35,852 bases of DNA from the NCBI GenBank assembly GCA_002505685.1, contig DAVT01000079.1, forward strand, positions 1-35,852, read 5' to 3'. This document shows positions 1,851 to 18,436 of this stretch, one piece after another (the stretch's first letter is position 1; every line of letters starts with the position of its first letter). The translations under genes were made by a program, and so were the position numbers. The notes under the pieces are model-generated. The model was not told the DNA's origin, made no database searches, and worked only from the letters and a program-made list of their open reading frames with translations. The DNA is from Euryarchaeota archaeon UBA501 (lineage in GTDB: Archaea; Thermoplasmatota; Poseidoniia; Poseidoniales; Thalassarchaeaceae).

Positions 1851-4058
1851 TCACGAGTCATCATTTTCCGGTTGCCTCTTGAGTCTCCAAAGTGCGACCA
1901 AACCAATCAAGGGTGGCAGAATAAGCAACATCCACATCAAGGGTGTCATTTCAGAATGAATCGACAACCCTGTATCAAATTCTTCGCTTGAATTGTCGAC
2001 AAACTCGATTCGTATGATGACGTCTCCCGAAGCCCATTCAGTCACGGAAAGTCGGTGTGTCATCGTACCAGGTCCATCGACAGTCGCTTCCACCGCAATC
2101 AATTCCGAAGTACAATCTTGAATGTAGCAAAGACGGAACTGAGTTTCTCCTTGTCCAGAATTTACCAAGGTGATATCGAGTGCACCAGGCTCACCGGGTC
2201 CTCCCGTGCCCAACTTTACAACTTCAGTCACTTGCAAAAATTCTCCAACAGGCGGTTCAACATCAAAGAGCATTGAATGAGTTCCAGTATTACCTGATGA
2301 GTCTGTTGCATTGACTACCAATACGTGCCGTCCCATTGGTAATGATGGCAATGTGAATGACTGGACTTCCGTCCAAGTAGTGCCCACATCTAATGGTTCA
2401 TCATTCAATTCGACAGACCATGTCAATTGTTCAATCGCATCAATATCATCCCAAGACTCTTCCAAACTAACCTCCACGTTTGGGCCCCCTTCGATGGGGC
2501 GATTGAGATCGCCGTAGAAATTCCCATCAATGCTTAGAGCCGGACGAGGTTTTGGCTCAGTTCTGTCGGTCACAACGAGGTCCCATGTTTGGGTGGCGAC
2601 GTTCCCTGCAGCATCCGTCAATTGTATTCCTAGATTGTATACAGTGAGGGGTTTGGCCATATGGCGTTCTTCGATTGTAAGGTGTTGTCCATTGACGTGT
2701 GGACCTTGAACAAACATGTCATCCCATGCATGGTTGCCAATGCCCAATTGCACCCATCCATTGCTTTTGTTGGATGTCCAACGAATGTCGACAGGAGGAG
2801 CGGAATCGTCCCCGGCTTGAACTGAACCAGAGAGCACAGCCCCTGAGGGGATGGAAAGAGTCTGTTGCCCGATATCCAAATCTACTGGATTTTCATCATC
2901 CACATGCAAATATTGCATCTGCATATTTCGGGTCGGTTGAATTCCATCAAGGTAGAGTTCCAGACTTTGATTTCCCATCAAACCCTGAGGATCCGTACAC
3001 TCAAGCGTGAGGTTCAGCCAAGTACTGATTTCTAGATTAAGGAACATTGAATCAATGGTGATGTTGGTTGAATTCTCATCCAACAAAATAGTGCTTCCTT
3101 CTCTCAATATGAATCTGCTCTGAGGGGATACAATCGATGAATCTGAGCAAGTAGATTCGATTGTCGTAGGTTGTCCGTATGGGATCCAAGGCAGTTGTCG
3201 ATCTTGAGCAGACCAAGACACAATTGGAGCCACATTTGTGCCCAAAGCGACGGTTACGTTACCGCTGACGCCAATTTCTCCACGGTGTATGACAAAGTCA
3301 TCGGGCAATCCAGTGATGTAATCACTTTGAGGTGAATAACGAATTTCGTGAGGAGAAGGTAGGGTAATTCGAAGATCTGTACTATCGGATAAATTCCCCG
3401 TAATTGGAACCCATAGCAGACGAGTAGAGCGCCCATCAGCCTGACCGGAGATATTTGCATATGTGCTCCAGCCCCATGATTCATTGTCAAAATATGCAGA
3501 TATGTTCGGTTCCCCGATCATGTCGATTTTGTCGTAAGCACAACATCCAATTCCCGTGTTGTTGGAAATCCATTCAGAAAATAGTTGAACATCATCACCG
3601 AATTCACTCGCCAATTGGTGGTTGATACCCAAATGGGAGTTCGGCAATTCGGGATGGCCGAGTGTATTTGGGATTACAATCGAAGAAGACCAAGTTGCGT
3701 TCAGTATCGCAGATTGTTCAATTGGACCTAACAGATTGAGGTGAGCTCCCCCCGAAATACTTCGCGGGTCCTGTATTGTTTGATTCAAGAAGGACGTGAC
3801 ATTTGTGCTTTGGTTGAACAATAGCAGATTTTCCTGAGGGACCCCATCGACAACTTTCACTAAACTCCAATTTCCTTCGGGCAAGTGAATGTCAATCGGT
3901 TGGTTTGGGTCGATTGGGGTTAAGTTGCCCGAATCATCCCACAAAAGAACCGGTCCAGGGGCTTGTTCACTCCACAAGTGAATCGAATTCTCTTCGGCCC
4001 CAATGGTGGGCAATGGCGCCAATAACAACAATGCGACGATTAGAACCGCCTTGCGCAC
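1851..4058 (-). CDS. Secreted, C-terminally membrane-anchored surface (glyco)protein with Ig-like/PKD-like modules
   Basis: 735-aa ORF with a GTG start 5 nt after GAGGTGA. N-terminal signal peptide MRKAVLIVALLLLAPLPTIGAEE. C-terminal TM LMWMLLILPPLIGLVALW followed by RLKRQPENDDS. I counted 19 N-x-S/T sequons by eye. Two ...TDxxGN... beta-sandwich endings (LTDAAGNVATQTWDLVVTD, NATDSSGNTGTHSMLFDVE). Confidence 0.8.
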   Translation of the reverse strand: MRKAVLIVALLLLAPLPTIGAEENSIHLWSEQAPGPVLLWDDSGNLTPIDPNQPIDIHLPEGNWSLVKVVDGVPQENLLLFNQSTNVTSFLNQTIQDPRSISGGAHLNLLGPIEQSAILNATWSSSIVIPNTLGHPELPNSHLGINHQLASEFGDDVQLFSEWISNNTGIGCCAYDKIDMIGEPNISAYFDNESWGWSTYANISGQADGRSTRLLWVPITGNLSDSTDLRITLPSPHEIRYSPQSDYITGLPDDFVIHRGEIGVSGNVTVALGTNVAPIVSWSAQDRQLPWIPYGQPTTIESTCSDSSIVSPQSRFILREGSTILLDENSTNITIDSMFLNLEISTWLNLTLECTDPQGLMGNQSLELYLDGIQPTRNMQMQYLHVDDENPVDLDIGQQTLSIPSGAVLSGSVQAGDDSAPPVDIRWTSNKSNGWVQLGIGNHAWDDMFVQGPHVNGQHLTIEERHMAKPLTVYNLGIQLTDAAGNVATQTWDLVVTDRTEPKPRPALSIDGNFYGDLNRPIEGGPNVEVSLEESWDDIDAIEQLTWSVELNDEPLDVGTTWTEVQSFTLPSLPMGRHVLVVNATDSSGNTGTHSMLFDVEPPVGEFLQVTEVVKLGTGGPGEPGALDITLVNSGQGETQFRLCYIQDCTSELIAVEATVDGPGTMTHRLSVTEWASGDVIIRIEFVDNSSEEFDTGLSIHSEMTPLMWMLLILPPLIGLVALWRLKRQPENDDS

Positions 4059-6096: not shown

Positions 6097-6569
6097 TGTC
6101 TGCTGGAGAAATGCGTCGAGTAACTGCAATCAATAACGGTACAGTGATTGATCACATTCCAGCAGGTTCAGCCCTAGTTGTATTGCAAATGCTTGGGATT
6201 TCAGATGACCGTGCCTCTCCGATTAGCCTAGTGATGAATGTCCCCTCATCAAAACATGGCCGTAAGGACATCATCAAGGTAGAAGACCGTGAACTAACAC
6301 AAGATGAACTTGACCGTTTGGCACTAATTGCTCCGAAAGCAAGCGTCGCCATCATTCGTTCATACGCAGTCGCTGAAAAGCGCGAAGTCACGATAGGAAC
6401 TGAGTTGGTTAATGTAGCAAGTTGCACATTCTCAAATTGTATTACCATCAATCCTAGAGAGCCACAAGACCACCGATTGAATGTCGTGAAGACCGACCCA
6501 CTAGAATTACGTTGTAGATACTGTGGCCGGCCACAAGTCATGAGTGAATTGATTGGCAACCTGATTTAG
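6096..6569 (+). CDS. pyrI: Aspartate carbamoyltransferase regulatory subunit
   Basis: INNGTVIDHIP N-domain. C-terminal Zn site C-x4-C ... C-x2-C (CTFSNC ... CRYCG). ATG 6096 overlaps the pyrB TGA by one nt (TGATG). The track's 6093 start is TTG. Confidence 0.93.
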   Translation: MSAGEMRRVTAINNGTVIDHIPAGSALVVLQMLGISDDRASPISLVMNVPSSKHGRKDIIKVEDRELTQDELDRLALIAPKASVAIIRSYAVAEKREVTIGTELVNVASCTFSNCITINPREPQDHRLNVVKTDPLELRCRYCGRPQVMSELIGNLI

Positions 6570-6571
6570 GT

Positions 6572-7582
6572 TTAGATTTCAGCCAACCACTGCTGGAATG
6601 TACAAGATTGACAAACGGCCTGGCTGGAAGGTGCCCCACATTTTTCACACTCAGTAGCTTCCCCCGGTTTCCACGATGCAGGAGGGTTTTCGGTCGAAGC
6701 CCACAACTCCCGAATAGCGTCCATTGAATGGACTAGGCCGTGCATTGTACCTGGATTCGAGGCTTCCATTTCGGCAAGGTAAGCTCGATGCTTCTGTCTT
6801 AGGGCACCAGTAGCATGTGGGCAATCATCGTGATGAATCGGTAATTTCGCCCCAATTGCATAGGCATGGATTTCCCTTTCTGGAATCCATCTGAGTGGCA
6901 CAATTCTAGGGGGTAACCCCACTATCGGAAAAGTGGTGTGCGGGGCCAATCTGATGATTCTCTCCATTTCTCCCTTGCCCAGATTCATCAATACAGATTG
7001 AGCCGTGTCATCCAAATTGTGCCCCAAAGCCATCCACTTGGCTCCAACCCTTTCTGCAAGAGCATTCAGACCTTGTCGCCGGAATACACCACAGTACGAA
7101 CAAGGCTTCATTCCTCTAGCTGCTTTGTGGTTTCCTGCCATCAAAGGCATCGAATTGACCACATTATCCATCCGCTCAAAACCGAGTTCAGGATAAGTTA
7201 TACTTTCAAATCTCAAGCCATGGGATTGGGCCAATTCACGAGCGCATTCCATCGATGGAGACCGATAGCCATCAATTCCTTCATCCACACAACCACACAC
7301 CAATTCGACATCACGCCTCGCTCCAACAATTTTGATCATCATGTCCAATAGCACAGCGGAATCTTTTCCGCCAGAAATACAAACCAAAATCACCGCAGGC
7401 TGCCCGGATTCATCACGCGCGTCAGAGGGTAAATTCAGTTGATTCCGAAGAGACTTGGACACACGCTTGCGAATGGATTTAGCCAAATGGGCTTGACAAA
7501 GATGCTGTCCACTATAGATTTGGTGAATTACTGCAGGATGGCTACATCGACTGCACGATTGCACATCTAACGAGAGGGACAC
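6572..7582 (-). CDS. PP-loop ATPase, TtuA/NcsA(Ncs6)-type tRNA 2-thiouridine synthetase
   Basis: 336-aa ORF. PP-loop CISGGKDSAVLL. Candidate Fe-S ligands KPCSYCG plus HHDDCPH. N-terminal (CSRCSHP...LCQAH) and C-terminal (CEKCGAP...CQSC) zinc fingers. GTG start. Confidence 0.85.
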   Translation of the reverse strand: MSLSLDVQSCSRCSHPAVIHQIYSGQHLCQAHLAKSIRKRVSKSLRNQLNLPSDARDESGQPAVILVCISGGKDSAVLLDMMIKIVGARRDVELVCGCVDEGIDGYRSPSMECARELAQSHGLRFESITYPELGFERMDNVVNSMPLMAGNHKAARGMKPCSYCGVFRRQGLNALAERVGAKWMALGHNLDDTAQSVLMNLGKGEMERIIRLAPHTTFPIVGLPPRIVPLRWIPEREIHAYAIGAKLPIHHDDCPHATGALRQKHRAYLAEMEASNPGTMHGLVHSMDAIRELWASTENPPASWKPGEATECEKCGAPSSQAVCQSCTFQQWLAEI

Positions 7583-7788
7583 GGTGCCGCGAAGGGGTTC
7601 ATCTCTTCAAATCGATTGTTCGTTATGGATAAATTATTCAATTGATTTTTTGAAATTTCAATTGGAATCTTAAACATATTTTTTCTAGTATTTTTCCAAT
7701 CTTCCGACACCCAATTGTGGGCACTTTTTGGGAACAGTTACTGCGAAATACCCATTTTTCAGTTGGCGAATCAAATTTACTACTCAAA

Positions 7789-7806
7789 CGGCCCCCTTAG
7801 GGGCCG
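7789..7806 (+). other. GC hairpin (7-bp stem CGGCCCC/GGGGCCG, 4-nt loop) inside an AT-rich divergent intergenic region
   Basis: Read directly: cggcccc-ctta-ggggccg. It lies about 55 nt upstream of the Roadblock ATG at 7862. Function unknown. Confidence 0.3.
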
Positions 7807-7861
7807 CCATGGGGCAAGTTCTTGAAGTCGTATTGAACCTCGATGACTTTTGAGGACGACC

Positions 7862-8167
7862 ATGTTGACACGTTTGCTCTCCAATATCGATGGTGTCAAG
7901 GCCTGTCTATTGTCGAGAGATGGCGAAATCGTAGAAGGTAGTGGAGAAGGGAATATCACCCTCTTCCATGAAGCCATGAAGATGGTATCTGAACTGAAAT
8001 TCGGCTCTCTGGAAGAGATGTGGTTTGAGGGCAACATAACAACAGTAGTAACCACGATTCGAGGTGGTTCAAGTCTGTGGCTGACAAGTGAAAAATTACC
8101 AGTTGGCCGATTAAGCCATGAGGCTCGGACTTTGCGACCAATAATCGAAGATTTGATTGAGGTGTAA
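7862..8167 (+). CDS. Roadblock/LC7 (MglB-like) domain protein
   Basis: 101 aa from ATG 7862, with GAGGA 5 nt upstream. The track's 7850 start is TTG. Family-typical pattern: LLSNIDGVKACLLSRDGEIVEGSG ... MWFEGNITTVVTTIRGGSSLWLTSEKLPVGRLSHEARTLRPIIEDL. Confidence 0.8.
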   Translation: MLTRLLSNIDGVKACLLSRDGEIVEGSGEGNITLFHEAMKMVSELKFGSLEEMWFEGNITTVVTTIRGGSSLWLTSEKLPVGRLSHEARTLRPIIEDLIEV

Positions 8168-8170
8168 TAA

Positions 8171-11100
8171 TTGTTTAATCTACCACCAGGAAATACCGTT
8201 GACTCGGAAGCTGACTTGAGCGTAGGGCAAAATCAAATGCCCTTTGAAACGGGAGTCATATCTCACTACAAACCTAGGGCGAAAACCGCTTGTGCACACC
8301 GTTTGGTTTACGGTGGAAGGGTCGTGGGTTGGCTTGCTGAGTCTGATGCAAAGCAAACCTTTGTCACAGGAGAAGGCGGGCGTGTTCGCTTGCTTGAATT
8401 ATCGGATGCACACGAATTGAGTGCAAGAGGATCGACATGGAGTGTGAATCAATTTACTGAGGTGGCACGCCGAATTCCAGAGGCCTTTTCAGATCCCTCC
8501 GACGTCGCCTCTCTTCTTGCCCAAGGAGCAGCTGCGCTTCCCATCGATACCACAGACCTCGCTCTATTGGTGGACCGCCTCGTTGAATCAGATGAGGTCA
8601 TTGGAGCTTTGGCGTTTGAGGACGGAGTCGTAATCCATTCTAGTGGAAATTTACCATCCACACCGGAGGATTTGGCCACATTAGGGCAAGAACACCTCCG
8701 GGGAATAGCTGCGAAATTCGATCAACAAGAGTCCCTATCAGCCAATCTACGCCTTGAAGGGGGACAATTGATGCTAACAGAAGCAGGTCAAGCATCTGTT
8801 GCGATTTGGTGTAGCCATGGTTCGGATGCCCATGCGGCACTCGCGAACGCCGCCAGCCTCGTTGGTTCAATCGATGATGAGCAAATGACTGAATTCGAAG
8901 ATCTGCCTGAAGGATTCGTTACCAAAGAGTCCAAGTCGGGTATCGATCAACTGATTTCTCATTTGAGGGCAGCCCATGAAGACCAATTGACAGGGTACAT
9001 AAAGTCAGTCTCTGAGTCGGATGAGCCAGTATATGTGGTACTTGTGAATGGGGTGCCCAGCGGAATTCGGGGGTCGTCAGAGTCATCCCTTTCTGATGCT
9101 ATTCATGCGATGACAACTTCCTCTCGTCGATTGTTAACCCACCGTCTTGAACGGCGGGCAAGACTAGGTTTGGTGGGTTCCACAGTGGAAGATTTCTCAT
9201 TGGCCCACCTCACAGATGCAATTGCAAACTGTCGGACTCGTTCCGATGACCGAAAAAAGTTGATTTCCGGGCGATTGGATGCTCTGTTCGGTTTTGATTT
9301 AGGTTTGGAATCCATGGAATCCGGCCGTTCTACATGGAAGATGTTGGAGACTGGTTCGCCCACAGCGACGTTGATGCCGGTTTCCAGTTCAAAAGTTCTA
9401 ACACCTGCTGGAGGGGAACTCAAAAAACGCCTTGAGCAACTTGAGCACACTCAGATTTCCCTTGAACGAGAAAAGGGCCGTCTAGAGCGTGAACTCGAGG
9501 AAGCACGCGCTTCCAGAGACGATGCTCGAGAACAAATGCATGATTTGGAAGCCTCATTGACAGAAGCCAGAGATGAGCGAAGTGAACTTCACCGGGAAAT
9601 AGATGATATGACCAGCAAAGTTCGCACTGCAGAAGCAGGCATGGATGAAGCGAGTGCACTATCCAATCGTCTCACCAAACGAGTTTCTGAACTTGAACAC
9701 ATGGTGGAGAAAAGAGCCGAAGAATTGGCGAGTGCATTAGGAGAGTTCGATTCAAGAGAAGCTTTGCTTGGAGATTTGCGAGAATTGACTACTCAGGAAG
9801 CCACCGTCAAATCCGAATTGAGTTCCGCTGAAACCCGTTTGGATGAAATTCGTAAAGCCATTGATCACGATGAACGATTACAGCGAGTGCTTACAGAGCA
9901 AGTGAATGCACAACGTGACCGACACCGAACAGGTCAAGGAGAACTAGATGAGGTAGAGCGTCGAATAGAGAATCAGCGAGCAGAATTGGCAGATTTGGAG
10001 GCAGAAGGTCACGCACATCGCCGATTGATGGAAGAGGAGAGGGGGCGAATTCTTGATTCTGAGAGAAAATCGACAATCATGCAATCCGAATTAAGGGAAA
10101 TGATGGAAGAGCGTCGATTGTTGCTACGAGAATTGGGCGATCTCGATGCTAGAAAAGCACAATCTGAAACAGAACTTAGGATGTTGTTAGAACAGGCAGA
10201 AGATATTCAAGAGGCCCACGAAATGGCACTACTTGATCTACAAGAGGCGGATAGAATTCGTGCAAGATTGGCTGAAGAACCACTGGCACAAGCCTTGCTA
10301 GGAGACGAACGTGGGCTTTCGAGTTTAGAACCAGTCTTGGATCGAATGGCCAATGCCAGAAGCCGAGGATATAGTATCGTTCTGTTAGATCGAGCGGTTG
10401 AGCGAGCCTTGTCTATCATTCAACACAGTGTTGATGAGGTTGCCAAAACCCCCCGACATTTACTATCTCTTGAAGTCATGGAGCTGTTGGAGAGACAGGC
10501 TCCAGAGACAGCCTCAACAGTTCGTGGTTTGACACGCTGGTCTGTTCAATCTAGATTAGAACATCAACTCGCTGAAACAGTACAACACGTCGTCATTGAT
10601 TTGGAAGGCCTACTCGATGAATACGAAAGATCAGTGACCATGTTGGCTCAATTGCAGGAAGTCTTGCGGGGTCTCGTTGATTTAGGCCTCCCCTCAGAAG
10701 ATATCAAGCCACTTGAGCGGTTTAGCCACATGCCTGAAGCACTACCATACATTTCCGTAGAAGCACGCAGATTGATTCAGCGTTCCTTGGATGAAATTTA
10801 CCTAGATGCAGATCGAAGAACTGCAGGGGATGCAGTAGGTTTGGCAGAAACAGTAGAAGTTCTAGAATCTCTACTCCGCAGACTCGACGTGGCAGGTCTA
10901 ACCGGGGAAGAACCTTCGGGGGCATTATGGTCATTCCAGCGATCTGGAAGCCTGCCTTTCGAAATCGATGGATTGGCTCGTCACGAACGCCCTGAAATCA
11001 ATAGCGAAGCAGTCCGGCACATGAATCCAGTAGAGGATGTCGCTGATGCGAGCCCAATGTCCTCAGAGATTATCGCGCCAAGCGCTCCTGCTGCGGCTCC

Positions 11101-11401
11101 AACTCCGGAAGCCAGTTCGGCACCTGCTTCAAATTCAACTTGGCAACCGATTGAGCCAGCTTCTGAAACCGATGGGGTGGATATTTCAGCAAGAATTTCT
11201 GCGGGTTTAACTCCCGCAGATGTTACTGGTAATCCAGATGAATCCGCCCTTATGTCAGATATCGATGTAGCACTTTCTGAGGTAGATTCCGCGGCTAGAA
11301 CCAGAGAAGATACCGAGAATGGAGTTGCTCCCCCAGCCGATCCTGTGCGACGCGACGCTCTAGATGACTTGGAGCGCGAATTGTCGGACTTGGACATGTA
11401 G
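8171..11401 (+). CDS. Large cytoplasmic scaffold-like protein: internal Roadblock-like domain, PATAN/DUF4388-like region, ~290-aa coiled coil, helical domain, acidic P/A/S-rich tail
   Basis: 1076-aa ORF. The TTG start at 8171 is preceded by GAGGTG (8159-8164), which overlaps the last codons of the Roadblock gene. The alternative ATG is at 8237. See findings for domain coordinates. I saw no hydrophobic TM segment and no Walker A motif. Confidence 0.8.
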   Translation: MFNLPPGNTVDSEADLSVGQNQMPFETGVISHYKPRAKTACAHRLVYGGRVVGWLAESDAKQTFVTGEGGRVRLLELSDAHELSARGSTWSVNQFTEVARRIPEAFSDPSDVASLLAQGAAALPIDTTDLALLVDRLVESDEVIGALAFEDGVVIHSSGNLPSTPEDLATLGQEHLRGIAAKFDQQESLSANLRLEGGQLMLTEAGQASVAIWCSHGSDAHAALANAASLVGSIDDEQMTEFEDLPEGFVTKESKSGIDQLISHLRAAHEDQLTGYIKSVSESDEPVYVVLVNGVPSGIRGSSESSLSDAIHAMTTSSRRLLTHRLERRARLGLVGSTVEDFSLAHLTDAIANCRTRSDDRKKLISGRLDALFGFDLGLESMESGRSTWKMLETGSPTATLMPVSSSKVLTPAGGELKKRLEQLEHTQISLEREKGRLERELEEARASRDDAREQMHDLEASLTEARDERSELHREIDDMTSKVRTAEAGMDEASALSNRLTKRVSELEHMVEKRAEELASALGEFDSREALLGDLRELTTQEATVKSELSSAETRLDEIRKAIDHDERLQRVLTEQVNAQRDRHRTGQGELDEVERRIENQRAELADLEAEGHAHRRLMEEERGRILDSERKSTIMQSELREMMEERRLLLRELGDLDARKAQSETELRMLLEQAEDIQEAHEMALLDLQEADRIRARLAEEPLAQALLGDERGLSSLEPVLDRMANARSRGYSIVLLDRAVERALSIIQHSVDEVAKTPRHLLSLEVMELLERQAPETASTVRGLTRWSVQSRLEHQLAETVQHVVIDLEGLLDEYERSVTMLAQLQEVLRGLVDLGLPSEDIKPLERFSHMPEALPYISVEARRLIQRSLDEIYLDADRRTAGDAVGLAETVEVLESLLRRLDVAGLTGEEPSGALWSFQRSGSLPFEIDGLARHERPEINSEAVRHMNPVEDVADASPMSSEIIAPSAPAAAPTPEASSAPASNSTWQPIEPASETDGVDISARISAGLTPADVTGNPDESALMSDIDVALSEVDSAARTREDTENGVAPPADPVRRDALDDLERELSDLDM

Positions 11402-11409
11402 GTGAACAC

Positions 11410-11670
11410 ATGGAGAAAGAGGGAACTGAAACCCTCATGGGTCGTATAGAAACTCATGGAGACAAGTTTCCTTGGTACCTTGAAAAAGCCAGTTTCTTGC
11501 TAACTATCGGAGCCGCAATTCTTGTTGGACAATGGATGTGGTTGGAATCAGGATGGAGCGACCAATTACTGTGGCCTGCTACGGTTTGTGTGATGCCTCT
11601 AACGGCCATAATCACAGCAGAAATCATCTCGCGTGTAATTCAAAGATTCCATATTGCCCAGAGCAATTAA
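11410..11670 (+). CDS. Small 2-TM membrane protein
   Basis: 86-aa ORF. The ATG is 8 nt after the upstream stop in the context TAGGTGAACACATG, where the stop is fused to an SD. Two hydrophobic helices (ASFLLTIGAAILVGQWMWL; LLWPATVCVMPLTAIITAEII). Confidence 0.55.
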   Translation: MEKEGTETLMGRIETHGDKFPWYLEKASFLLTIGAAILVGQWMWLESGWSDQLLWPATVCVMPLTAIITAEIISRVIQRFHIAQSN

Positions 11671-12915
11671 TCACGGATTTGTTTTGACCTTGCTCAGTGC
11701 TGATTCAATCAAACCGGATACTCTTTGCCAAGGTACAATGTATCTCAATCCAGCAACAAATGTCAGGAATAGCATTGCTGAAATGACCTTTCCATAGGTT
11801 AGGCGAAGTTCCAGTGATTCCTTGACTTGTCCACTCCATTGCCCAGATCCAGTCCAACTGACAACATCGATAATCAAATCATCAAACTTCAACGCAAGCA
11901 TTGTGACAAATGCAACTGAAAAGATGACAACTACCGTATGCTGCATGTGGGTATTGAGGATACTTTGGAATTGCCTTACATACTCTGGATCTTTTTTGCA
12001 AGATTCTGGCAATCTGAATGCATATTCAAGGAAACGAATTGTGGCCTGAGCGGTTTCAGAAAATACCATCAGCAGTACTGCAACCAACAGGAGTTCCCAA
12101 ACTTGACTTGAGATCAAACCTCCTAGAGTGTCAGCCTCCCCAATCTGGGTGGGCAATGGGTTCAGGCCAGGTGAATGCGGATCCGATACACTGGCAAGTT
12201 GACTTACTACCCCTTCATAGGAAAGCAGAGCATAGATTCCGAGATAGACGAGCATGTAGGCCATTGACCAATTGACCATTCTCTTTGAGAGACCCCAAAT
12301 TCCCATCAATCCAAACAATACCGGAGCGAGGAACAACAGGACAATCAGTAACTGAATGTATACAGATAATGGCCAAACCAAATGATTGGCATGATTCATC
12401 GAATCATCTGCATTTCCAAATGGTAAGTATAAATCAAAACTCATAATCATTCCAAATGTCCAAGTTAGAAGGAACATTCCTGCCAAGAATAGAATCATCG
12501 ATCCAAGGAGGCCAAGAGTGATTTTTCGACGTCTTGCAGGAGGCTGGAAATTCAGTGCAACCCAAGCCCCAGCAATCGCCATACTGAGTAGAATTGGGAC
12601 AAAATAGCGTCCATCTCCTTCGTTGCCCTGCCCTGTTACCCAATCTGGTAAGGGAAGACCATCCAAACCTCCACCATCGGTCAATGTGTCTTCTATTTGA
12701 TCGAGCGTTAGGGTGTGATCAAGAGCAGGGCACCAAGCTCCAGTGCTTGCATAATCCGGGTGGCAGTGACCAAACACACGTGTCATCGTTAGGAACAACC
12801 AAATCAATGCCAATGTAGCCACAAGTTGAAGACAAACAACACGCCATTCTTTGCGCAAAACACGCAAATGTAGACTGGTCATCCCTTCCTCTTGTTGTGC
12901 TACATCATCTGCCAT
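11671..12915 (-). CDS. Polytopic membrane protein (about 8 TM), last gene of the DUF4350-like/DUF58 run
   Basis: 414-aa ORF. The ATG is preceded by TAGGGAGGTGAGAATATG, i.e. the DUF58 stop plus an SD. Many hydrophobic helices (VVCLQLVATLALIWLFL, VPILLSMAIAGAWVAL, LGLLGSMILFLAGMFLL, VYIQLLIVLLFLAPVLFGLMGIWGL, etc.). Confidence 0.75.
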   Translation of the reverse strand: MADDVAQQEEGMTSLHLRVLRKEWRVVCLQLVATLALIWLFLTMTRVFGHCHPDYASTGAWCPALDHTLTLDQIEDTLTDGGGLDGLPLPDWVTGQGNEGDGRYFVPILLSMAIAGAWVALNFQPPARRRKITLGLLGSMILFLAGMFLLTWTFGMIMSFDLYLPFGNADDSMNHANHLVWPLSVYIQLLIVLLFLAPVLFGLMGIWGLSKRMVNWSMAYMLVYLGIYALLSYEGVVSQLASVSDPHSPGLNPLPTQIGEADTLGGLISSQVWELLLVAVLLMVFSETAQATIRFLEYAFRLPESCKKDPEYVRQFQSILNTHMQHTVVVIFSVAFVTMLALKFDDLIIDVVSWTGSGQWSGQVKESLELRLTYGKVISAMLFLTFVAGLRYIVPWQRVSGLIESALSKVKTNP

Positions 12916-12927
12916 ATTCTCACCTCC

Positions 12928-14178
12928 CTACATCTTCACCTGCAACAATGCTTGACTCAATTCAACATCAGGCATCCAATCAATGACGCGAGCACCATAA
13001 CCGGCAACCGCAGAAAGCCGATTTTGCCGCTCAAGCTTCATGACTTCGTATGACATTCTAGGGATTCGGCTTACCAATCTCTCATAGTCTATACTAGATG
13101 GGCTAAGGATAACCACTTCATGCCCCCTTCCAGCCAAATCTCGGATCGCGTGAGGTACAGTCCCATCACCTTCTAGACTTGAGATTACGAATACGGGGCT
13201 CCCTCGGCTAAATCTTGGTGCCAATGAATTGGTTACTGCTTGTAGTGGCATATCTCCCTTTGGCGCAACCCCTGCCAAACTGGATAGGACCTTGAAGTAC
13301 TGTTTATCTCCACCGTCCGCAGGTAAATATGACAACTTATCATCGTATACTGCAAGTGCCACAGAATCTCTCCGCTTGATGAAGTAGGAAGCCAAACTCG
13401 CTGCTGCCACAGTCCCCATTTCCAGTGGATTCTTCAGTACAGTTCCAATTCGGCTGATGTCTCTAGAATCGAGTAATATGAACACATCCGTAACCGCATC
13501 CCTACACTTTTCATTGACCATCATAACTCCAGTTCGAGCAAATGCCTTCCAATTGATAATCTTGAATGGATCACCGGGTACGTATTCTCTTAGTGAATAG
13601 AATTCAGAACCGGGCCCCGGAGTTCTCAGTGTCATTGCTCCAGTGTACATCTTTGGCGTCCGACTTCGAATCATTGCTTCTTCAATTTCACGTACTTGTG
13701 GGAATACGATTAGCCCCGAGCGGTGGTCAATATACATCTCTTGGCTGAAGAGGTTGAATGTGTTGCGATAGCGAACCGAGACGGGTCCAAATGAATAATG
13801 GCCACGAAGAGGGCAACGCAAAACATAGCGAATCCTTGTTGTTTCACCGGGTCCAAGGTTGACTCGCATGTAATTGAGTCCACTACGCAATTTCATTTCG
13901 TGTGGTACGTTATCGAAAATCTCCAATTGTTGTGTACGTCTGAATGAACTATTGGTAATTGCCAATTCAACGTACAAATCGTCTCCTTTGTACAAATTGT
14001 CAGCAGACAATGTACGGACGACCTCCAACTGACCATGTCCAACAACCCATGAATTGATAGCAAGGAAGGCAATGAACATCAAGCCAAGGATCATCAATTG
14101 GAAGTTGGCGATCATCATTCCAATCAAGACCAAAGAGATACCAGAGGTCATGAGTAGAGCTGCCTTACGTGTCCACAT
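12928..14178 (-). CDS. DUF58 family protein (vWA-like, normally MoxR-associated)
   Basis: 416-aa ORF. N-terminal double TM, then the signature EFYSLREYVPGDPFKIINWKAFARTG followed by VFILLDSRD. The ATG is preceded by TAAGGAGGTGAGAGAATATG. Confidence 0.85.
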   Translation of the reverse strand: MWTRKAALLMTSGISLVLIGMMIANFQLMILGLMFIAFLAINSWVVGHGQLEVVRTLSADNLYKGDDLYVELAITNSSFRRTQQLEIFDNVPHEMKLRSGLNYMRVNLGPGETTRIRYVLRCPLRGHYSFGPVSVRYRNTFNLFSQEMYIDHRSGLIVFPQVREIEEAMIRSRTPKMYTGAMTLRTPGPGSEFYSLREYVPGDPFKIINWKAFARTGVMMVNEKCRDAVTDVFILLDSRDISRIGTVLKNPLEMGTVAAASLASYFIKRRDSVALAVYDDKLSYLPADGGDKQYFKVLSSLAGVAPKGDMPLQAVTNSLAPRFSRGSPVFVISSLEGDGTVPHAIRDLAGRGHEVVILSPSSIDYERLVSRIPRMSYEVMKLERQNRLSAVAGYGARVIDWMPDVELSQALLQVKM

Positions 14179-14192
14179 ATTCTCTCACCTCC

Positions 14193-15851
14193 TTACTTCC
14201 GTCCCCACATTTTGACTCGTTTGACAACGGCCACAAGTTGCTCCAAGCTGTAATTTCGATCTTCAAATACGAATTTAACCAGTACGGGGTCACTAATCAT
14301 CTTCTGCAATTCACGGGCAGGTAGAGCATCAAACTCATCTCGAGTCAGTGAATTCAAATTCCTAACTCTAGACAATAATACTTGTTTTACTTTATTTGGA
14401 CGTTGATAATATCCATATCGCCTAGCATCTCCAAATCCATAGTAGATGATGCTGAAAACGTGCCGCCATGGTTCAGGATCTACCTTCTTGATGATGACGG
14501 CCTCGAATGTGATAAATAGAGCCAAAAACAGGAAGAGCATTGCCATCCAATCATTCGTGAAGTACACCAAAATGTAGTAAATCAGACTGTAGGTATCACT
14601 GAGGGCATTGGTTTGCTGATGTCGACTTTCGTCAAAGATAACTTGCTTACCCTGAGCAGAAGTTCCATTGTCAGCATCGTTTGCAAGAAGAGATTCTGCG
14701 ATGATGTCAAGGACCCAACGACGATTGTCATTGCTGGGCATTACATTACCATTGAGTGCCCCATACCTTTCCGCATTGGTATTCTCCCAATCATAAATGG
14801 CATTCATCAGGGCTGAACCATCACTGACGAAAATAGCGCGACCCATTGGTGTGCCACCAGGTTCCTCTTCGCAATCGCGGTTGTCACACACCTTAATCGC
14901 CATAGTGAATGGGCCTGCCTCATCACTTTCGATTCCTCCACCCTCAAATCCAACATCTCCTTCGCCATCATCATTCGTGTCGAGATAAGAGTCCTGACTG
15001 GAACGTCCCCAAGCGTATATGTTGTCGCTAGGCTCTTCCGCATCTTCCTTGTCAAATGCTGATGGGGTATTCAGTAGGACGTTGTAATTCGTACTGAAGT
15101 TCCAGAATTGGGTGCCCTCTGAATCGGTTTCTATGTGGTGGGCACATAGACCGGCTTCAGAGAAAGTAGGTACGGTCCCATCGGGTGCCCCAGCGATTCG
15201 GTCAAGACGATCGATGACTCCATCATTGTCAGAATCTCCAAAGCATGGATGTTGAATGGAACGGTCTAATCCGGTGTAGTCGTATGGATTGGAAGAGTTC
15301 ATCCACACATATTCGTAACCCAATTCGCGTGCCCAAGCATCTTCATCATACAATTGATGTCCACTATATCCTAAGCCGAAAACATCTGCTAGACTAGCGG
15401 CATATCCAAAATCATCCATCACCAGCAAAGTTCCTCCAGCAGCAAAGTACTCGATGATTGCATTGATTTCGGTAGCAGTGTATCCCTCACTTTCACTCCA
15501 TTGAACCACACTTGCATCTCCCGTAAAACGGGGCAAAGAAATGGTATCCTGTTCAACACCAGTGACAATGAAAACGGTATCTTCAGGGTTTTCTATTTCA
15601 CCCAGCAGAACTGGGCTTGAAATCATGCTTGTGGTATCCACGCCCATGTTTTTCAAATCAGCACGGAATGCGGACAAATCATCCCAATCATCATCGTAAG
15701 CTGAGAGGTGTGGGTCACTGTCGACTAGGTATGAACTAACAATACTCAGCAACAACAGAGCAAGCACAGAATAGAACGCCAACATCAAACCGACTCTACG
15801 CGTTTTCCGCGATTTCAGCACAGTTTTGATGTCCACTGAGCCAATTTTCAT
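14193..15851 (-). CDS. DUF4350/GldG-like bitopic membrane protein with a large acidic ectodomain
   Basis: 552-aa ORF. N-terminal TM (GLMLAFYSVLALLLLSIVSS). The block VFIVTGVEQ...AIIEYFAAGGTLLVMDDFGY is typical of the DUF4350 class-I-amidotransferase-like fold. Second TM near aa 430-455, then a ~95-aa basic cytoplasmic tail. The family call rests on my memory of the motif plus the adjacent DUF58. Confidence 0.65.
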   Translation of the reverse strand: MKIGSVDIKTVLKSRKTRRVGLMLAFYSVLALLLLSIVSSYLVDSDPHLSAYDDDWDDLSAFRADLKNMGVDTTSMISSPVLLGEIENPEDTVFIVTGVEQDTISLPRFTGDASVVQWSESEGYTATEINAIIEYFAAGGTLLVMDDFGYAASLADVFGLGYSGHQLYDEDAWARELGYEYVWMNSSNPYDYTGLDRSIQHPCFGDSDNDGVIDRLDRIAGAPDGTVPTFSEAGLCAHHIETDSEGTQFWNFSTNYNVLLNTPSAFDKEDAEEPSDNIYAWGRSSQDSYLDTNDDGEGDVGFEGGGIESDEAGPFTMAIKVCDNRDCEEEPGGTPMGRAIFVSDGSALMNAIYDWENTNAERYGALNGNVMPSNDNRRWVLDIIAESLLANDADNGTSAQGKQVIFDESRHQQTNALSDTYSLIYYILVYFTNDWMAMLFLFLALFITFEAVIIKKVDPEPWRHVFSIIYYGFGDARRYGYYQRPNKVKQVLLSRVRNLNSLTRDEFDALPARELQKMISDPVLVKFVFEDRNYSLEQLVAVVKRVKMWGRK

Positions 15852-15957
15852 GCTGACAAGCTCCCCACATCCATAGGATGTGCAGCGGCGAGACGCTGAA
15901 CCAAGCCTTAAGACGGTTTGGGGGCGATGGGAGAGACAGTATCAGCCGAATTTTACA

Positions 15958-16200
15958 TCAACGACTCAAATGAACATCCTCGTCAATCGTGGCCACTTCT
16001 TCTGTTGGTATGACCAAATGCTCACCGAATGTTGGCCATGGTAGCAGGCTAGGGTCCAATCCCTCATCTAAATCCAACAATAATCCAAGCACTTCCCCCC
16101 CCACATCATCGATAAACAAGTCGACAATGATGCCGAGGAGGTCTCCGCGACTATCCACGACTCTTCTACCAGATAGTTCTGTAGAGAATGCTGCTGGCAT
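15958..16200 (-). CDS. Small PRC-barrel domain protein
   Basis: LSGRRVVDSRGDLLGIIVDLFIDDVGGEVLGLLLDL matches the PRC-barrel pattern. I prefer ATG 16200 (80 aa) because it follows TGAGGTGAATGTA, where the TGA is the cdc48 stop. The track's longer 16224 start would overlap cdc48. Confidence 0.72.
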   Translation of the reverse strand: MPAAFSTELSGRRVVDSRGDLLGIIVDLFIDDVGGEVLGLLLDLDEGLDPSLLPWPTFGEHLVIPTEEVATIDEDVHLSR

Positions 16201-16210
16201 TACATTCACC

Positions 16211-18436
16211 TCATACACTTTCAATGCCCATCAAGGTATCCGTCTTGCGACGGATGCTCTCAAGGCCACTGGTTAACATTGCTTCCAACTTTGAATAGTA
16301 CTCAATCATGTCAGGCGTGATGGTTGGACGCACGCGATCTATGGCCTGCTCGAAGTGTTTCTTTGATACAGATTTCTTCTCAGCCCGCATGGCAATCAGT
16401 GCAGCCTCTCGACACACCGCTTCGACATCGGCGCCGGTGAAATTCTGCATATTCTCTGCCAGACTATCCAAGTTGAATTTGCCCAATGGCATATCTTTAG
16501 CATGAATCTGGATGATTTTCCTTAGGCTTGCTTGGTCGGGTGGCGGAATGTGCATGACTCGCTCAAATCGACCACTCCTGAGTAAAGCGGGGTCAATCAT
16601 TTCTGGTCGGTTGGTTGCTGCAATCACAATGACGCCTTCCATCGATTCAATGCCATCCATGCTAGAGAGCATTTGATTTACCACACGGTTAGATACATCG
16701 CTACCTTCGCCTGAGTTTGAAGTTCTTGCGCCAGCAATTGACTCAAACTCATCTAGGAAAATGATACTTGGACTGGCTTGTTTTGCTTTCTTGAACACTT
16801 CTCTGATAGCTTTCTCGGATTCACCAACCCATTTGGAAATTAATTCAGGTCCTTTGACTGTGATAAAATTGGCCTTTGCTTCGTTGGCAATCGCTTTCGC
16901 AATTAGTGTCTTTCCAGTGCCTGGTGCTCCAAATAGTACAATTCCTCGAGGGGGTTTAATTCCAAAGTGTTCGAATCTATCAGGCATTGTCAGTGGCCAC
17001 TCAACACTCTCTTTGAGTCGTTCTTTCACTTCATCAAGACCACCAACATCAGCCCAAGAAACTTCAGGAACTTCAACATAAATTTCTCGAAGAGCACTTG
17101 GTTCAATATCTCTGATGGCCAGTTTGAAATCTCCCATTTGGACTTCCATCTTCTCGAGGACTTCAGGTGGGATTTCGTCTTGGTCTAAATCAATATCAGG
17201 AAGGTAACGACGCAGAGCTTTCATCGCTGCTTCTCGGGTTAGACTCATGATATCTGCCCCCACGAATCCATATGAATTTTCCAAAATCCAATCCATATCA
17301 AAATCATCCGAAATAGGCATACCTCGTGTGTGGATATTGACTATCTCTCGACGTCCATTCTTATCTGGTACACCAATCTCCAACTCACGGTCAAATCGCC
17401 CTGGTCGTCTCAACGCTTGGTCAATGGCATCGGGCCGATTTGTAGCTCCGATGACAACGACATTGTCTCGACCCTGCATTCCATCCATCAATGTCAATAG
17501 TTGAGCGACGACTCGTCGTTCAACTTCCCCGGAAACATCTTCACGCTTGGGTGCGATTGAATCCAACTCATCGACGAATATAATCGCAGGAGAATTTGAG
17601 GCAGCATCATCAAAAATTTCACGCAACTGTTTCTCGGATTCACCATAATACTTAGAGATAATTTCGGGACCGTTGATGCTGGTGAAATGTGCATTTGTTT
17701 CATTGGCAACAGCCTTCGCAATCATGGTCTTACCCGTTCCGGGGGGGCCGTGTAACAACACACCTTTCGGTGGATCGATTCCAAGTCTGCGGAAGAGAAT
17801 AGGGTGCTTCAATGGCAATTCTATCATTTCACGAACCTTGAGAAGTTGGTCCCCCAACCCCCCAATATCTTCGTACATTATCGAAGAAACCTCTCCGGGT
17901 TCTTCATCCTCAACCATTTCTTCCTTGATGACGATTTCAGTGTCGGGCAGAACTCGAACAATGCCTTTGGGTTTGGTAGAGACAATCGCGAAGGGTAATG
18001 CTTCAGCAAATAGAGTCATTCCGGGGATAAATATGCGGTCACCAGCGACAACTGGTCGCTTGTTGAGACCTCGACGTGCGAATCCCTCAATTCCTGAACC
18101 AAACTTCACCTTCTGCTGCTTGGCCATAACTGGACTTAGAACGAGTCTTTCGCACTCCTTAGTTTCGACTTTTTTGATGGTAACACGGTCACCCAAACTA
18201 ACGCCCGCATTCTTGCGAATGATACCGTCGATTCGAATGACTCCAAGGTTCGCGTCTTCGGGTCTGCATCTCCATACGATGGCCGCGGTATTACGCTCCC
18301 CTGCAATTTCGATAACATCCCCGGGTTTTAGCCCCAAATCGTTGTCAAAGGGCACTCTTGCTCGGCCGTGACCCACATCACTTGGGATTGCTTTCGCTAC
18401 ACGTAGGGATAGTGTCTTGTCTTCTTCATCAGCCAT
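16211..18436 (-). CDS. cdc48: Cdc48/VAT/p97-type AAA+ ATPase (N domain + D1 + D2)
   Basis: 741 aa. N domain [18 protein letters not shown]...GDVIEIAG. D1 has Walker A GPPGTGKT and Walker [10 protein letters not shown]2 has Walker A GAPGTGKT and Walker [19 protein letters not shown] lies upstream of the ATG. Confidence 0.95.

Follow-up and report, generated by a model that had tools for sequence, protein, structure and literature searches.

A Poseidoniales operon with two Roadblock modules, a coiled coil, a membrane hairpin and no linked GTPase: a candidate membrane-associated scaffold

Roadblock domains form homo- or heterodimeric platforms, and small GTPases are their usual partners (PMC10933270). 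The stretch of archaeal DNA analyzed here (the window, 35.9 kb) contains three adjacent genes, A, B and C, encoding a small Roadblock-type protein, a 1076-aa protein with a coiled coil and a small membrane protein, and it contains no GTPase. This raises the question of whether the three products belong to one system and, if so, what a Roadblock platform might do within it. A sequence-only reading had placed the Roadblock fold in A alone, had given B a receiver-like/PATAN domain and a long coiled coil, and had proposed a scaffold module that could serve polarity or the positioning of a division site or surface organelle.

Genes A (7862-8167; ATG to TAA; 101 aa), B (8171-11401; TTG to TAG; 1076 aa) and C (11410-11670; ATG to TAA; 86 aa) all lie on the forward strand, with intergenic gaps of 3-14 nt and conserved Shine-Dalgarno (SD) motifs embedded in the last codons or the stop of the upstream gene. 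At the A-B junction (8159-8173, forward strand), GAGGTG (8159-8164) forms the last two codons of A (Glu-Val) and is followed by TAATAA and the TTG at 8171; this pattern of GAGGTG, stop, 2-3 nt and start is kept in 27/28 orthologous junctions. The B-C junction (11399-11412, forward strand) reads TAGGTGAACACATG, in which the TAG overlaps GGTG 8 nt before the ATG of C, and in orthologs the stop likewise overlaps GGTG, 8-11 nt ahead of the ATG. Both junctions are as the sequence-only reading had described them, and their conservation across about 28 orthologous loci, judged by sequence comparison, is not chance. The start of B is ATG in every ortholog, with TTG at the same position only in the window; since residues 1-22 of B are conserved, TTG 8171 must be the real start. 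Similarly, a GAGG motif resembling an SD sequence (7852-7855, forward strand), 6 nt upstream of ATG 7862, is conserved in MGIIb loci and favors this start of A over an upstream TTG at 7850.

Comparison of loci also revealed a near-invariant element upstream of A (7754-7841, forward strand), composed of CAGTTGG (7760-7766), a GC hairpin, GGCCCC/GGGGCC (7790-7805), and TTCTTGAA (7819-7826). It is almost unchanged in 25 MGIIb loci, while the identity of A across them is only 42-86%. In 31/36 loci its bipartite motif is found a single time, always just upstream of A, and it is unique in the window, where 0 matches are expected by chance. In MGIIa loci the element is present with a hairpin that has changed yet is still complementary. 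The element has no match in Rfam, and RNAalifold supports the hairpin only; it is probably the operon's promoter/operator together with a 5' leader hairpin. The conserved SD junctions and this locus-specific 5' element together support an operon with translational coupling.

The operon is kept in nearly all sampled Poseidoniales (marine Group II). Our neighborhood survey found A-B-C in 27 of the 28 loci with contig coverage of all three genes; they come from MGIIa, MGIIb and a divergent lineage with locally inserted genes, so the co-occurrence on which the sequence-only reading depended is borne out. In two loci (L032 and L033), the A-B-C order survives although a methyltransferase gene and an FG-GAP gene have been inserted locally. 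One lineage of 69% GC (L036) keeps B with the leader element directly upstream of it, and A and C are not detectable there; unless both lie somewhere else in that genome, B can persist in their absence. The locus belongs to the core genome, is syntenic across the order and is not mobile: the whole stretch between the GHMP kinase and CDC48 is collinear, and so are the flanking genes (PyrB/PyrI, TtuA, DUF58, DUF4350, CDC48 and Aldedh). Synteny alone is thus no proof that A, B and C are linked in function.

Gene A had been read as a Roadblock protein, and structure prediction upholds this where Pfam is blind to A. Searches of Pfam, NCBIfam and PDB sequences gave no match for A. Its AlphaFold (AF2) model (pLDDT 93.6) has the topology alpha-beta-beta-alpha-beta-beta-beta-alpha, and the best 50 Foldseek matches are all Roadblock proteins (probability 1.0, TM 0.6-0.84), led by LAMTOR2 (p14) and with MglB structures among the top matches. 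On the strength of this model, A is a diverged member of the Roadblock/LC7 fold; it belongs to the "full RB" type and retains the helix at its C terminus (H81-98). MGIIa orthologs of A match Robl_LC7 below threshold (E=7e-4 to 0.17), and one ortholog carries the JGI label "regulator of Ras-like GTPase activity." Protein identity across the MGIIb loci (42-86%) marks A as fast evolving.

The N-terminal domain of B (aa 1-125; 8171-8545, forward strand, as are all segments of B) aligns around a conserved start, MFxLPxG, and a motif, GHRLVxxGxVVGWLAE; it has no recognized fold and no family match, and AF2 confidence is low. The next segment (aa ~126-235; 8546-8875) is a second Roadblock/LC7 domain, which the sequence-only reading had overlooked. 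Three independent lines support it. In an AF2 model of the N-terminal part that is poor overall (pLDDT 40), residues 127-229 show Roadblock topology at pLDDT 57-70, and the best 50 Foldseek matches of this segment are all Roadblock proteins, with MglB structures among the top. The Pfam model Robl_LC7 matches 4/12 members of the B family below threshold, most strongly P0159 (aa 132-215, model positions 4-89 of 91, E=6e-4); its gathering score is reached by neither A nor B. Finally, a profile of the domain matches CvnB5 in the PDB (3leq; E=2.7e-5), collinear over 90 residues, followed by Asgard Roadblocks, Rv3364c and LAMTOR4. With this domain in B, the logic of the operon becomes one of two Roadblock modules rather than a Roadblock protein and its effector.

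The receiver-like/PATAN assignment fared less well. The middle alpha/beta domain of B (aa ~236-345; 8876-9205) resembles DUF4388/PATAN by eye only, and AF2 confidence is low. Neither DUF4388 nor Response_reg matched any of 12 diverse full-length B proteins or 10 isolated middle-domain slices, the latter even at E<=10, and the domain has no relative in the PDB. It is followed by a conserved helical linker (aa ~346-412; 9206-9406; motif RTRSExR...GFExGLE) and then by the coiled coil (aa 413-703; 9407-10279), identified by heptad and composition analysis as ~290 proline-free residues, with strong periodicity at 415-581 and 631-704 and a weaker, Gly-containing segment at about 585-630. The coiled coil that had given B its name is therefore present, although it makes up only about 27% of the protein.

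Beyond it lies a helical, highly conserved C-terminal domain (aa 704-935; 10280-10975) with the motifs EEPLAxALL, LLDRAVER, TPRxLLSxEVMxLLExQxPxTA, VRGLxRWSVQ and LDDIYLxADxRxAG; it has no recognized fold and no relative in Pfam or the PDB. The tail (aa 936-1076 and stop; 10976-11401) is acidic, of low complexity and rich in Pro/Ala/Ser, and it ends in a conserved amphipathic peptide, ALxxLExxLSxLD-hydrophobic. Residues 561-935 are 88-98% identical across MGIIb, on par with CDC48, and the C-terminal domain retains 48-61% identity in MGIIa and other lineages, in contrast to the fast evolution of A and C. By sequence identity, constraint in the system is thus strongest in the distal coiled coil and C-terminal domain of B, which the sequence-only reading had missed, and conservation on the level of CDC48 suggests a strongly constrained interface. 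In a collection of 1.84 billion proteins the B family makes up about 12 clusters; it covers MGIIa and MGIIb and has no detectable remote relatives; every named member is labeled "hypothetical protein."

Gene C encodes a two-TM hairpin with both ends cytoplasmic, as hydropathy peaks, ortholog alignment and charge agree: the loop lacks Lys or Arg in 18/18 orthologs, and the N-tail has 2-8. The cytoplasmic N terminus carries a conserved motif, TLxGRxETHGRxYP, and the outer loop is Trp-rich. The C profile also recovers the MGIIa orthologs, at E=1e-11 to 1e-16. Neither A nor B has TM segments, and the Walker A motif GxxxxGK[ST] occurs in none of the three proteins, as had been noted by eye for the soluble pair; among window ORFs of at least 80 aa it occurs only twice, both times in CDC48.

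Given these features, we propose, with a probability of roughly 40%, that A-B-C is a Poseidoniales-specific, cytoplasmic, membrane-associated scaffold whose subunits are co-transcribed and translationally coupled. Its most likely logic, by analogy with Ragulator or MglB-MglC, would be that of a membrane-tethered Roadblock pair on a coiled-coil scaffold. B would be the core, probably dimerized by its coiled coil to give a rod some 40 nm long, with the Roadblock domain in its N-terminal part and the main interaction or effector surface formed by the C-terminal domain and the distal coiled coil, both very highly conserved. A may dock on the B Roadblock domain, either as a 1:1 heterodimer like LAMTOR2/3 or as stacked homodimers like MglC-MglB, paralogs of <9% identity that bind each other in this way (PMC7949163); either pairing would build the dimeric platform that Roadblock domains always form. 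C would hold the assembly on the cytoplasmic side of the membrane via its conserved N-terminal peptide, and the platform would recruit or position a partner encoded outside the operon. A polarity role for the trio is speculation. In a mirror-tree comparison with 14 comparators, pairwise distances of A followed those of the B Roadblock domain most closely (raw r=0.91; partial Mantel r=0.56, p about 2e-4, in a test prone to false positives). The signal is not specific, as A also correlates with the B C-terminal domain and with a neighboring gene, D (r=0.48); C follows the N-terminal domain of B, not its C terminus. An hhalign comparison of A with the B Roadblock domain was not significant (E=0.021, probability 2%).

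Alternatively, the trio may be a classical MglB-type regulator with an unlinked GTPase, a switch of MglA/MglB style split across loci, in which A, with or without the B Roadblock domain, supplies GAP or GEF activity to a small Ras-like GTPase encoded elsewhere, B is its effector or localization scaffold, and C is the membrane anchor. We consider this possible and rather unlikely. It fits the usual partnership of Roadblock platforms with small GTPases, the resemblance of both Roadblock domains to MglB, CvnB and LAMTOR structures, and the JGI label on one A ortholog; MglA GTPases of archaeal group 4 also exist in Euryarchaeota, and in many cases an MglB homolog is not linked to its GTPase (PMC4316618). 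However, a search of 32 loci (484 kb in total) found no GTPase-like ORF (G1, G3 and G4 motifs in order) within 10 kb, and there is none anywhere in the window, so the reported lack of an MglA-like neighbor holds in 32/32 loci. That lack is less unusual than had been implied, because 328/749 prokaryotic MglB homologs are orphans (PMC4316618). The fast evolution of A is unlike that of a partner of a conserved GTPase, and some Roadblock proteins function independently of GTPases (PMC10933270). The literature we searched is silent on any MglA, Arf or Rag-like GTPase in Poseidoniales.

It is improbable that B is instead an intermediate-filament-like cytoskeletal protein, comparable to crescentin and other bacterial coiled-coil-rich proteins, with A and C helping to regulate or nucleate it and the Roadblock domains controlling assembly instead of serving as a platform for recruitment. 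The long proline-free heptad region, the very high conservation of coiled-coil residues 561-703 (unusual for a passive spacer), a faint match to the Pfam model Rod_CreS in one MGIIa fragment and the persistence of B alone in L036 speak for filaments, whereas the small share of coiled coil in B, the dominance of large globular regions at both termini, which suits a scaffold or tether better than an intermediate-filament-like rod, and the lack of homology to any known filament family speak against them. We give still less credence to mere adjacency, in which the genes act independently and their order reflects genome-wide Poseidoniales collinearity. The collinear flanking genes and the solitary B of L036 would fit, yet the short gaps with SD motifs inside the end of the upstream gene, a gene order that outlasts the insertions in L032 and L033, the Roadblock domains in both A and B, and the evolutionary rate of A, which tracks the B Roadblock domain, all argue for a linked system. 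An SMC/Rad50-like DNA-handling role for B, or an anti-phage defense role for the trio, is effectively refuted: NCBIfam SMC and Rad50 models match B aa 416-722 (E about 1e-10), but the similarity is confined to coiled-coil arms and scores 20-38 bits, where the cutoffs stand at 300-1087; the PADLOC matches to LmuB and PycTM do not rise above noise (E=0.0045 and 0.009, about 13 bits); and B lacks a Walker A motif or ABC ATPase head and sits in an order-wide core-genome context.

Among known systems, the proposed scaffold can be likened to MglB-MglC of Myxococcus xanthus, where two highly diverged Roadblock-fold proteins act together, as A and B would. Here, however, no locus has an MglA-family GTPase within 10 kb, one Roadblock module is part of a 1076-aa protein with a coiled coil, RomR, RomX and RomY are absent, and the host is an archaeon. 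Ragulator (LAMTOR1-5), with the C-terminal Roadblock domains of the Rags, is likewise a platform of Roadblock pairs with a small separate membrane anchor; its anchor is a lipidated extended protein rather than a two-TM hairpin, C has no homology to LAMTOR1, Rag GTPases are absent here, and Ragulator lacks the long coiled coil and conserved C-terminal domain. AglZ and FrzS, to which the sequence-only reading had pointed, share with B a cytoplasmic layout of an N-terminal regulatory globule followed by a long coiled coil, although B has a Roadblock domain and no detectable receiver or PATAN domain in place of their pseudo-receiver. AglZ and FrzS are also not known to have a large conserved C-terminal domain such as that of B.

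The closest sequence relative of the B Roadblock domain is CvnB of the Streptomyces conservons (PDB 3leq), which encode CvnA (sensor kinase-like), CvnB, CvnC (DUF742) and CvnD (GTPase) together (PMC4316618); CvnA, CvnC and CvnD are all absent here. Domains of the LC7 type (RBLC7) are without a C-terminal helix, and a partner helix can bind where it would sit, whereas A keeps this helix in its model and would therefore be a "full" Roadblock domain of the MglB/LAMTOR2 type. In dynein, the small LC7 Roadblock dimer stabilizes the dimer of a long, partly helical scaffold subunit (PMC10933270), and its seat on the intermediate chain offers a GTPase-independent precedent for a Roadblock protein on a scaffold.

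Genes A (ATG 7862 to TAA 8167, 101 aa), B (TTG 8171 to TAG 11401, 1076 aa) and C (ATG 11410 to TAA 11670, 86 aa) follow one another on the + strand, and both the open reading frames and the SD-fused junctions that a sequence-only reading had described proved to lie exactly where it had placed them. At the A-B junction, GAGGTG (8159-8164), which is complementary to the CACCUC of the archaeal 16S rRNA 3' tail, forms the last two codons of A and ends 6 nt before TTG 8171, while TAGGTGAACACATG (11399-11412) forms the B-C junction. Gene A has a motif of its own, a conserved GAGG 6 nt ahead of ATG 7862. Given that the pattern of GAG GTG, a stop codon, 2-3 nt and the start of B is kept in 27 of 28 orthologous loci, and that in the orthologs GGTG is overlapped by the stop codon of B 8-11 nt ahead of the ATG of C, we conclude that these junctions are not due to chance. 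The TTG start of B is peculiar to the window: the 27 orthologous loci that were examined all have ATG at the same position after the GAGGTG-stop junction. An in-frame stop directly upstream and the conservation of residues 1-22 identify TTG 8171 as the real start, and its use may weaken translation initiation in this genome, or it may be a sequence variant.

The operon is preceded by a near-invariant non-coding element (7754-7841, + strand; ~90 nt upstream of A), which is almost unchanged DNA across MGIIb, a marine Group II subgroup of the Poseidoniales. It is more conserved than the coding sequence of A, whose protein identity goes down to 42%. The element reads TTTTCAGTTGGCGAAT...AAACGGCCCC-NNN-GGGGCCG...GGGGCAAGTTCTTGAAGTCG, and its parts are CAGTTGG, a GC hairpin (7790-7805) with a kept stem and a variable loop, and TTCTTGAA. 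Of 36 loci, 31 have a single copy of the combination CAGTTGG-N(40-62)-TTCTTGAA, in every case immediately ahead of A; the window has no second copy (chance matches expected, 0), and the motif was not found in the divergent loci L032/L033. Copies lie at 6047-6113 in L001, 5266-5332 in L030, 8417-8483 in L031, and from about 8007 over roughly 70 nt in L036, where A is undetected and the element stands directly upstream of B. In MGIIa, the other subgroup, both boxes are kept, and the hairpin sequence is altered yet still complementary. No Rfam family matches the element, and RNAalifold supported only the hairpin, for which one compensatory pair was seen in an alignment that was misaligned in part. 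We therefore rejected a riboswitch-like structured RNA, and the element is most simply read as a dedicated promoter/operator with a leader hairpin, which would make A the first gene of the unit.

Protein A had no match in Pfam, NCBIfam or the PDB sequences, either as a single sequence or as a 31-member profile, and a search of A and each of the 31 MGIIb members of its family with Robl_LC7 (PF03259; Pfam gathering cutoff, 23 bits) gave nothing even at E<=1. An AlphaFold2 (AF2) model built on the 31-member alignment was nonetheless confident (pLDDT 93.6, pTM 0.85), with the topology alpha-beta-beta-alpha-beta-beta-beta-alpha, and its top 50 Foldseek matches in the PDB were all Roadblock proteins (probability 1.00, TM 0.6-0.84), including LAMTOR2/p14-MP1 (LAMTOR2/3), Asgard Roadblocks, MglB and a Streptomyces Roadblock. 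The A profile matches the ~113-aa proteins found at the position of A in MGIIa (E about 1e-6 to 1e-7); starting from their N-termini, these proteins also match Robl_LC7 below its cutoff (12-20 bits, E=7e-4 to 0.17). The model, the Foldseek result and these sub-threshold matches together make A a sequence-divergent yet genuine Roadblock-fold protein, and we regard its superfamily assignment as secure at the level of the predicted fold. Thus, the earlier identification of A as a Roadblock protein stands as to fold, while the Pfam cutoff is not reached and A itself has no sequence match. The modeled protein is of the "full" Roadblock type, with the C-terminal helix kept, unlike dynein LC7-type domains, which are without it (PMC10933270). 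The A family is confined to proteins of the Poseidoniales/Thalassarchaeaceae.

B had been described as a 1076-aa coiled-coil protein, which is true of aa 413-703, the rest of the protein being made up of six other regions. These begin with an N-terminal domain of no recognised fold (aa 1-125), an internal Roadblock domain (aa ~126-235) that the earlier reader overlooked, an alpha/beta middle domain (aa ~236-345) and a helical linker (aa ~346-412). The coiled coil that follows is proline-free, with strong heptads at 415-581 and 631-704 and a weaker, Gly-containing stretch between them, and it leads into a helical C-terminal domain (aa 704-935) and, after aa 935, an acidic, low-complexity tail with a conserved amphipathic peptide at its end.

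Three independent lines of evidence point to the internal Roadblock domain. An AF2 model of aa 1-420 from 9 sequences had an overall pLDDT of 40 and was usable only at 127-229 (pLDDT 57-70), where it takes up Roadblock topology, and the top 50 Foldseek matches of this N-terminal model were all Roadblock proteins. By sequence, Robl_LC7 was the Pfam family matched by most members of the B family (4/12), the best match being in P0159 (aa 132-215, model positions 4-89 of 91, E=6e-4, 19.9 bits versus the 23-bit cutoff), and a 12-sequence profile of the domain matched the crystal structure of Streptomyces CvnB5 in the PDB (E=2.7e-5), with Asgard Roadblocks, Rv3364c and LAMTOR4 as the next matches. 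We consider the domain secure at the levels of predicted fold and sequence. When A was aligned with each sub-domain of B by hhalign, none of the alignments was significant; the best was with the Roadblock domain (E=0.021, collinear).

The receiver-like or PATAN domain that the sequence-only reading had proposed for B is not supported, and neither is the polarity logic of that reading, whose interpretation thus holds in part. DUF4388 (PF14332) matched none of 12 full-length B-family proteins at E<=1 and none of 10 middle-domain slices searched separately at E<=10, Response_reg matched neither B nor 11 diverse relatives nor those slices, and no PDB relative of the middle domain was found; both identities were therefore rejected. 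By eye the middle segment looks DUF4388-like, which we treat as a lead and not as a result. A profile of the C-terminal domain likewise found no relative in the PDB.

A and B contain no TM-like segments. C has two hydrophobic segments, in agreement with its earlier description as a 2-TM protein, and its orthologs share the conserved motif TLxGRxETHGRxYP at the N-terminus, a loop rich in Trp and a second TM segment that is conserved. The loop has 0 Lys/Arg in all 18 orthologs and the N-tail has 2-8, which, by the positive-inside rule, indicates a hairpin with both termini predicted to lie in the cytoplasm.

As the earlier reading required, the trio is conserved in related genomes. It occurs in all 22 MGIIb loci whose contigs extend far enough, in three MGIIa loci (on indel-ridden long-read contigs) and in L032/L033, the divergent P0164 lineage, with a methyltransferase gene and an FG-GAP gene inserted around it. 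In those two loci the methyltransferase gene (8938-9618) lies between TtuA and A; the FG-GAP-repeat protein (13221-14567; 448 aa, with terminal hydrophobic segments) is encoded between B and a shortened C-like open reading frame, its gene overlapping the 3' end of B by 50 nt. The exception is L036 (69% GC), which at 7694-12294 retains the upstream element and a B of 38% identity with no detectable A or C, the ATG of B coming directly after a ~110-nt leader. In this lineage A and C are either dispensable or relocated.

Our scan of a genome collection, which used two N-terminal peptide patterns, returned only MGIIb genomes at identities of at least 74%; MGIIa and the more divergent lineages were reached by other searches. 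An exhaustive HMMER search with the N-terminal profile of B against 1.84 billion cluster representatives gave 54 proteins. Full-length matches to B, 1020-1089 aa long, fell into about 12 clusters at 50% identity and all had the same architecture; the search brought up no remote relatives of B in other domain contexts. Relatives of the B C-terminal domain annotated as Poseidoniaceae (MGIIa) were 50-61% identical. A word-indexed database search gave only fragments of B shorter than 440 aa because of frameshifted MGIIa contigs; full-length B proteins are in the collection. The MGIIa loci L029, L030 and L031 come from polished long-read assemblies rich in frameshifts, in which PyrB, CDC48, Aldedh and B are all in fragments, and counts of "short homologs" of B should be read with that in mind. 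Named database members are all called "hypothetical protein" except for one A ortholog with a JGI COG-style Roadblock label, and the literature we searched does not mention the operon. We conclude that the operon is real, order-wide and previously unannotated, and that it combines modules of a known kind in a new domain architecture.

Within MGIIb, aa 561-935 of B are 88-98% identical, compared with 88-97% for CDC48 and 85-92% for PyrB, and identity is 60-91% in the Roadblock domain of B, 42-83% in A and 37-58% in C. Set against the neighbouring genes, this gradient makes the distal coiled coil and C-terminal domain of B the constrained core and A and C a fast-evolving periphery.

The stop codons of C and the convergent gene D abut, 0 nt apart (11668-11673), and are 0-3 nt apart in orthologs. 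D encodes a 414-aa multi-TM protein with no family match and heads a conserved minus-strand cluster (11671-18436) of D, DUF58, a weak DUF4350 match and CDC48, to which a PRC-barrel protein is added in the orthologous loci where it was called. The identity of DUF58 is 92-99% within MGIIb, falling to 76-83% when divergent lineages are compared. DUF58 genes are usually accompanied by MoxR, and the D-to-CDC48 cluster has no MoxR ATPase. In several relatives, a gene of ~664 aa with a faint Pfam match to LVIVD repeats lies between PyrI and TtuA (L001 2951-4945, L004 4840-6828); in the window this gene is missing and PyrI abuts TtuA at 6569-6572, an indel in an otherwise collinear region. Elsewhere on the minus strand, a 1592-aa PA14 and Laminin_G_3 protein (31026-35804) and two further large open reading frames with no family or weak Ig-like matches (1851-4058 and 67-1809) are probably surface or adhesion proteins unrelated to the trio.

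We searched for a GTPase that might serve the Roadblock proteins. No open reading frame in the window has a GTPase Pfam domain, and none in the 484 kb of 32 loci (MGIIa, MGIIb and divergent lineages) has ordered G1+G3+G4 motifs. GxxxxGK[ST] is absent from A, B and C, and the window has P-loops nowhere but in CDC48, which carries two. The earlier observations that the soluble proteins A and B have no Walker A motif and that no GTPase adjoins them were thus borne out, and an MglA-like GTPase next to the trio in relatives, which would have counted against that reading, was looked for and found at none of the 32 loci. A Roadblock is termed "coupled" when an MglA-family GTPase lies within about four genes (PMC4316618), and no MglA/MglB-type arrangement of this sort occurs at the 32 loci. 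Orphans made up 328 of 749 MglB homologs, none of them characterised as of 2014 (PMC4316618).

Members of the Roadblock/LC7 superfamily pair by way of the beta-sheet edge and the alpha2 helices. Roadblock domains act as homo- or heterodimeric platforms, as in MglB2, LAMTOR2/3, LAMTOR4/5 and the Rag C-terminal domains (PMC10933270), and MglB and MglC, paralogs that have diverged, bind one another in the form of stacked homodimers (PMC7949163). We favor, tentatively and with a probability of about 0.4 for the model as a whole, a scaffold in which B would dimerise via its coiled coil, A would dock onto the Roadblock domain of B in a heterodimeric or a stacked-homodimer arrangement, C would anchor the complex to the membrane, and the highly conserved distal region of B would engage a conserved partner. 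In a mirror-tree analysis with 14 comparators, the distances of A tracked the Roadblock domain of B best (raw r=0.91; partial Mantel r=0.56, p about 2e-4), and those of C tracked the N-terminal domain of B (r=0.62). Since A also correlates with the C-domain of B and with gene D (partial r=0.48), the A-B signal is suggestive and not discriminating. The collinearity of the region from the GHMP kinase to CDC48 across the whole order makes synteny alone weak evidence for linkage; we judge it very improbable that A, B and C are merely adjacent.

Platforms of this kind usually, not always, bind small GTPases (PMC10933270), so the trio might instead be an MglB-type regulator of an unlinked GTPase. 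The literature searched is silent on a cognate small GTPase elsewhere in Poseidoniales genomes, and we consider this reading somewhat unlikely. That B, with its long coiled coil, is an intermediate-filament-like cytoskeletal protein seems to us quite unlikely. The coiled coil also drew matches from NCBIfam SMC/Rad50 models, at B aa 416-722 only and by generic arm similarity (20-38 bits versus cutoffs of 300-1087). Given these far sub-cutoff scores, and a B without Walker A or ABC ATPase head, we rejected an SMC/Rad50 identity; a known anti-phage defence system fell likewise, as PADLOC matches were at noise level and the locus belongs to the core genome and keeps its synteny throughout the order. 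SMC-like or defence roles are scarcely credible. Returning to the scaffold, a far more specific version of it would be a GTPase-free, order-specific cell-organising machine, a "Ragulator on a stalk" independent of eukaryotic and Asgard systems and with its own cis-regulatory leader: the A and B Roadblock platform, which the 2-TM protein would tether to the membrane, would occupy one end of a coiled-coil stalk ~40 nm long, whose distal domain, conserved at the level of CDC48, would position an essential envelope or division component. We think it unlikely that this version holds in full.

Marine Group II are among the most abundant planktonic archaea and are uncultured, and their cell biology is, to our knowledge, almost wholly undescribed. 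The operon is near-universal in the sampled members of the order, with a B core constrained as tightly as CDC48, and its two cryptic Roadblock domains offer a concrete, testable handle on a lineage-defining complex. In joining a Roadblock domain to a long coiled coil within one protein, accompanied by a second Roadblock protein as partner and by a membrane micro-protein, the operon shows a new architecture, which bears on the debate over the Roadblock functions that existed before small GTPases or apart from them. At this stage it falls short of a breakthrough: Roadblock proteins are often orphans, and the scaffold function is one that we infer.

Among known systems, the analogy to AglZ/FrzS fails, as B has no detectable receiver domain. 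The conservons supply, in CvnB, the nearest sequence relative of the B Roadblock domain, while CvnA, CvnC and CvnD are absent here. The trio resembles the MglB-MglC pair in logic and is not a member of that system, having no MglA GTPase and no RomR or RomX homologs. It belongs no more to Ragulator, and both of its Roadblock modules fall under the Pfam threshold. The trio has no LAMTOR1 homology and no Rag GTPase at its loci, and its likeness to Ragulator is an analogy. That likeness lies in the logic of Roadblock pairs joined to a separate membrane anchor, to which the two Roadblock modules and the 2-TM protein C of this operon would correspond.
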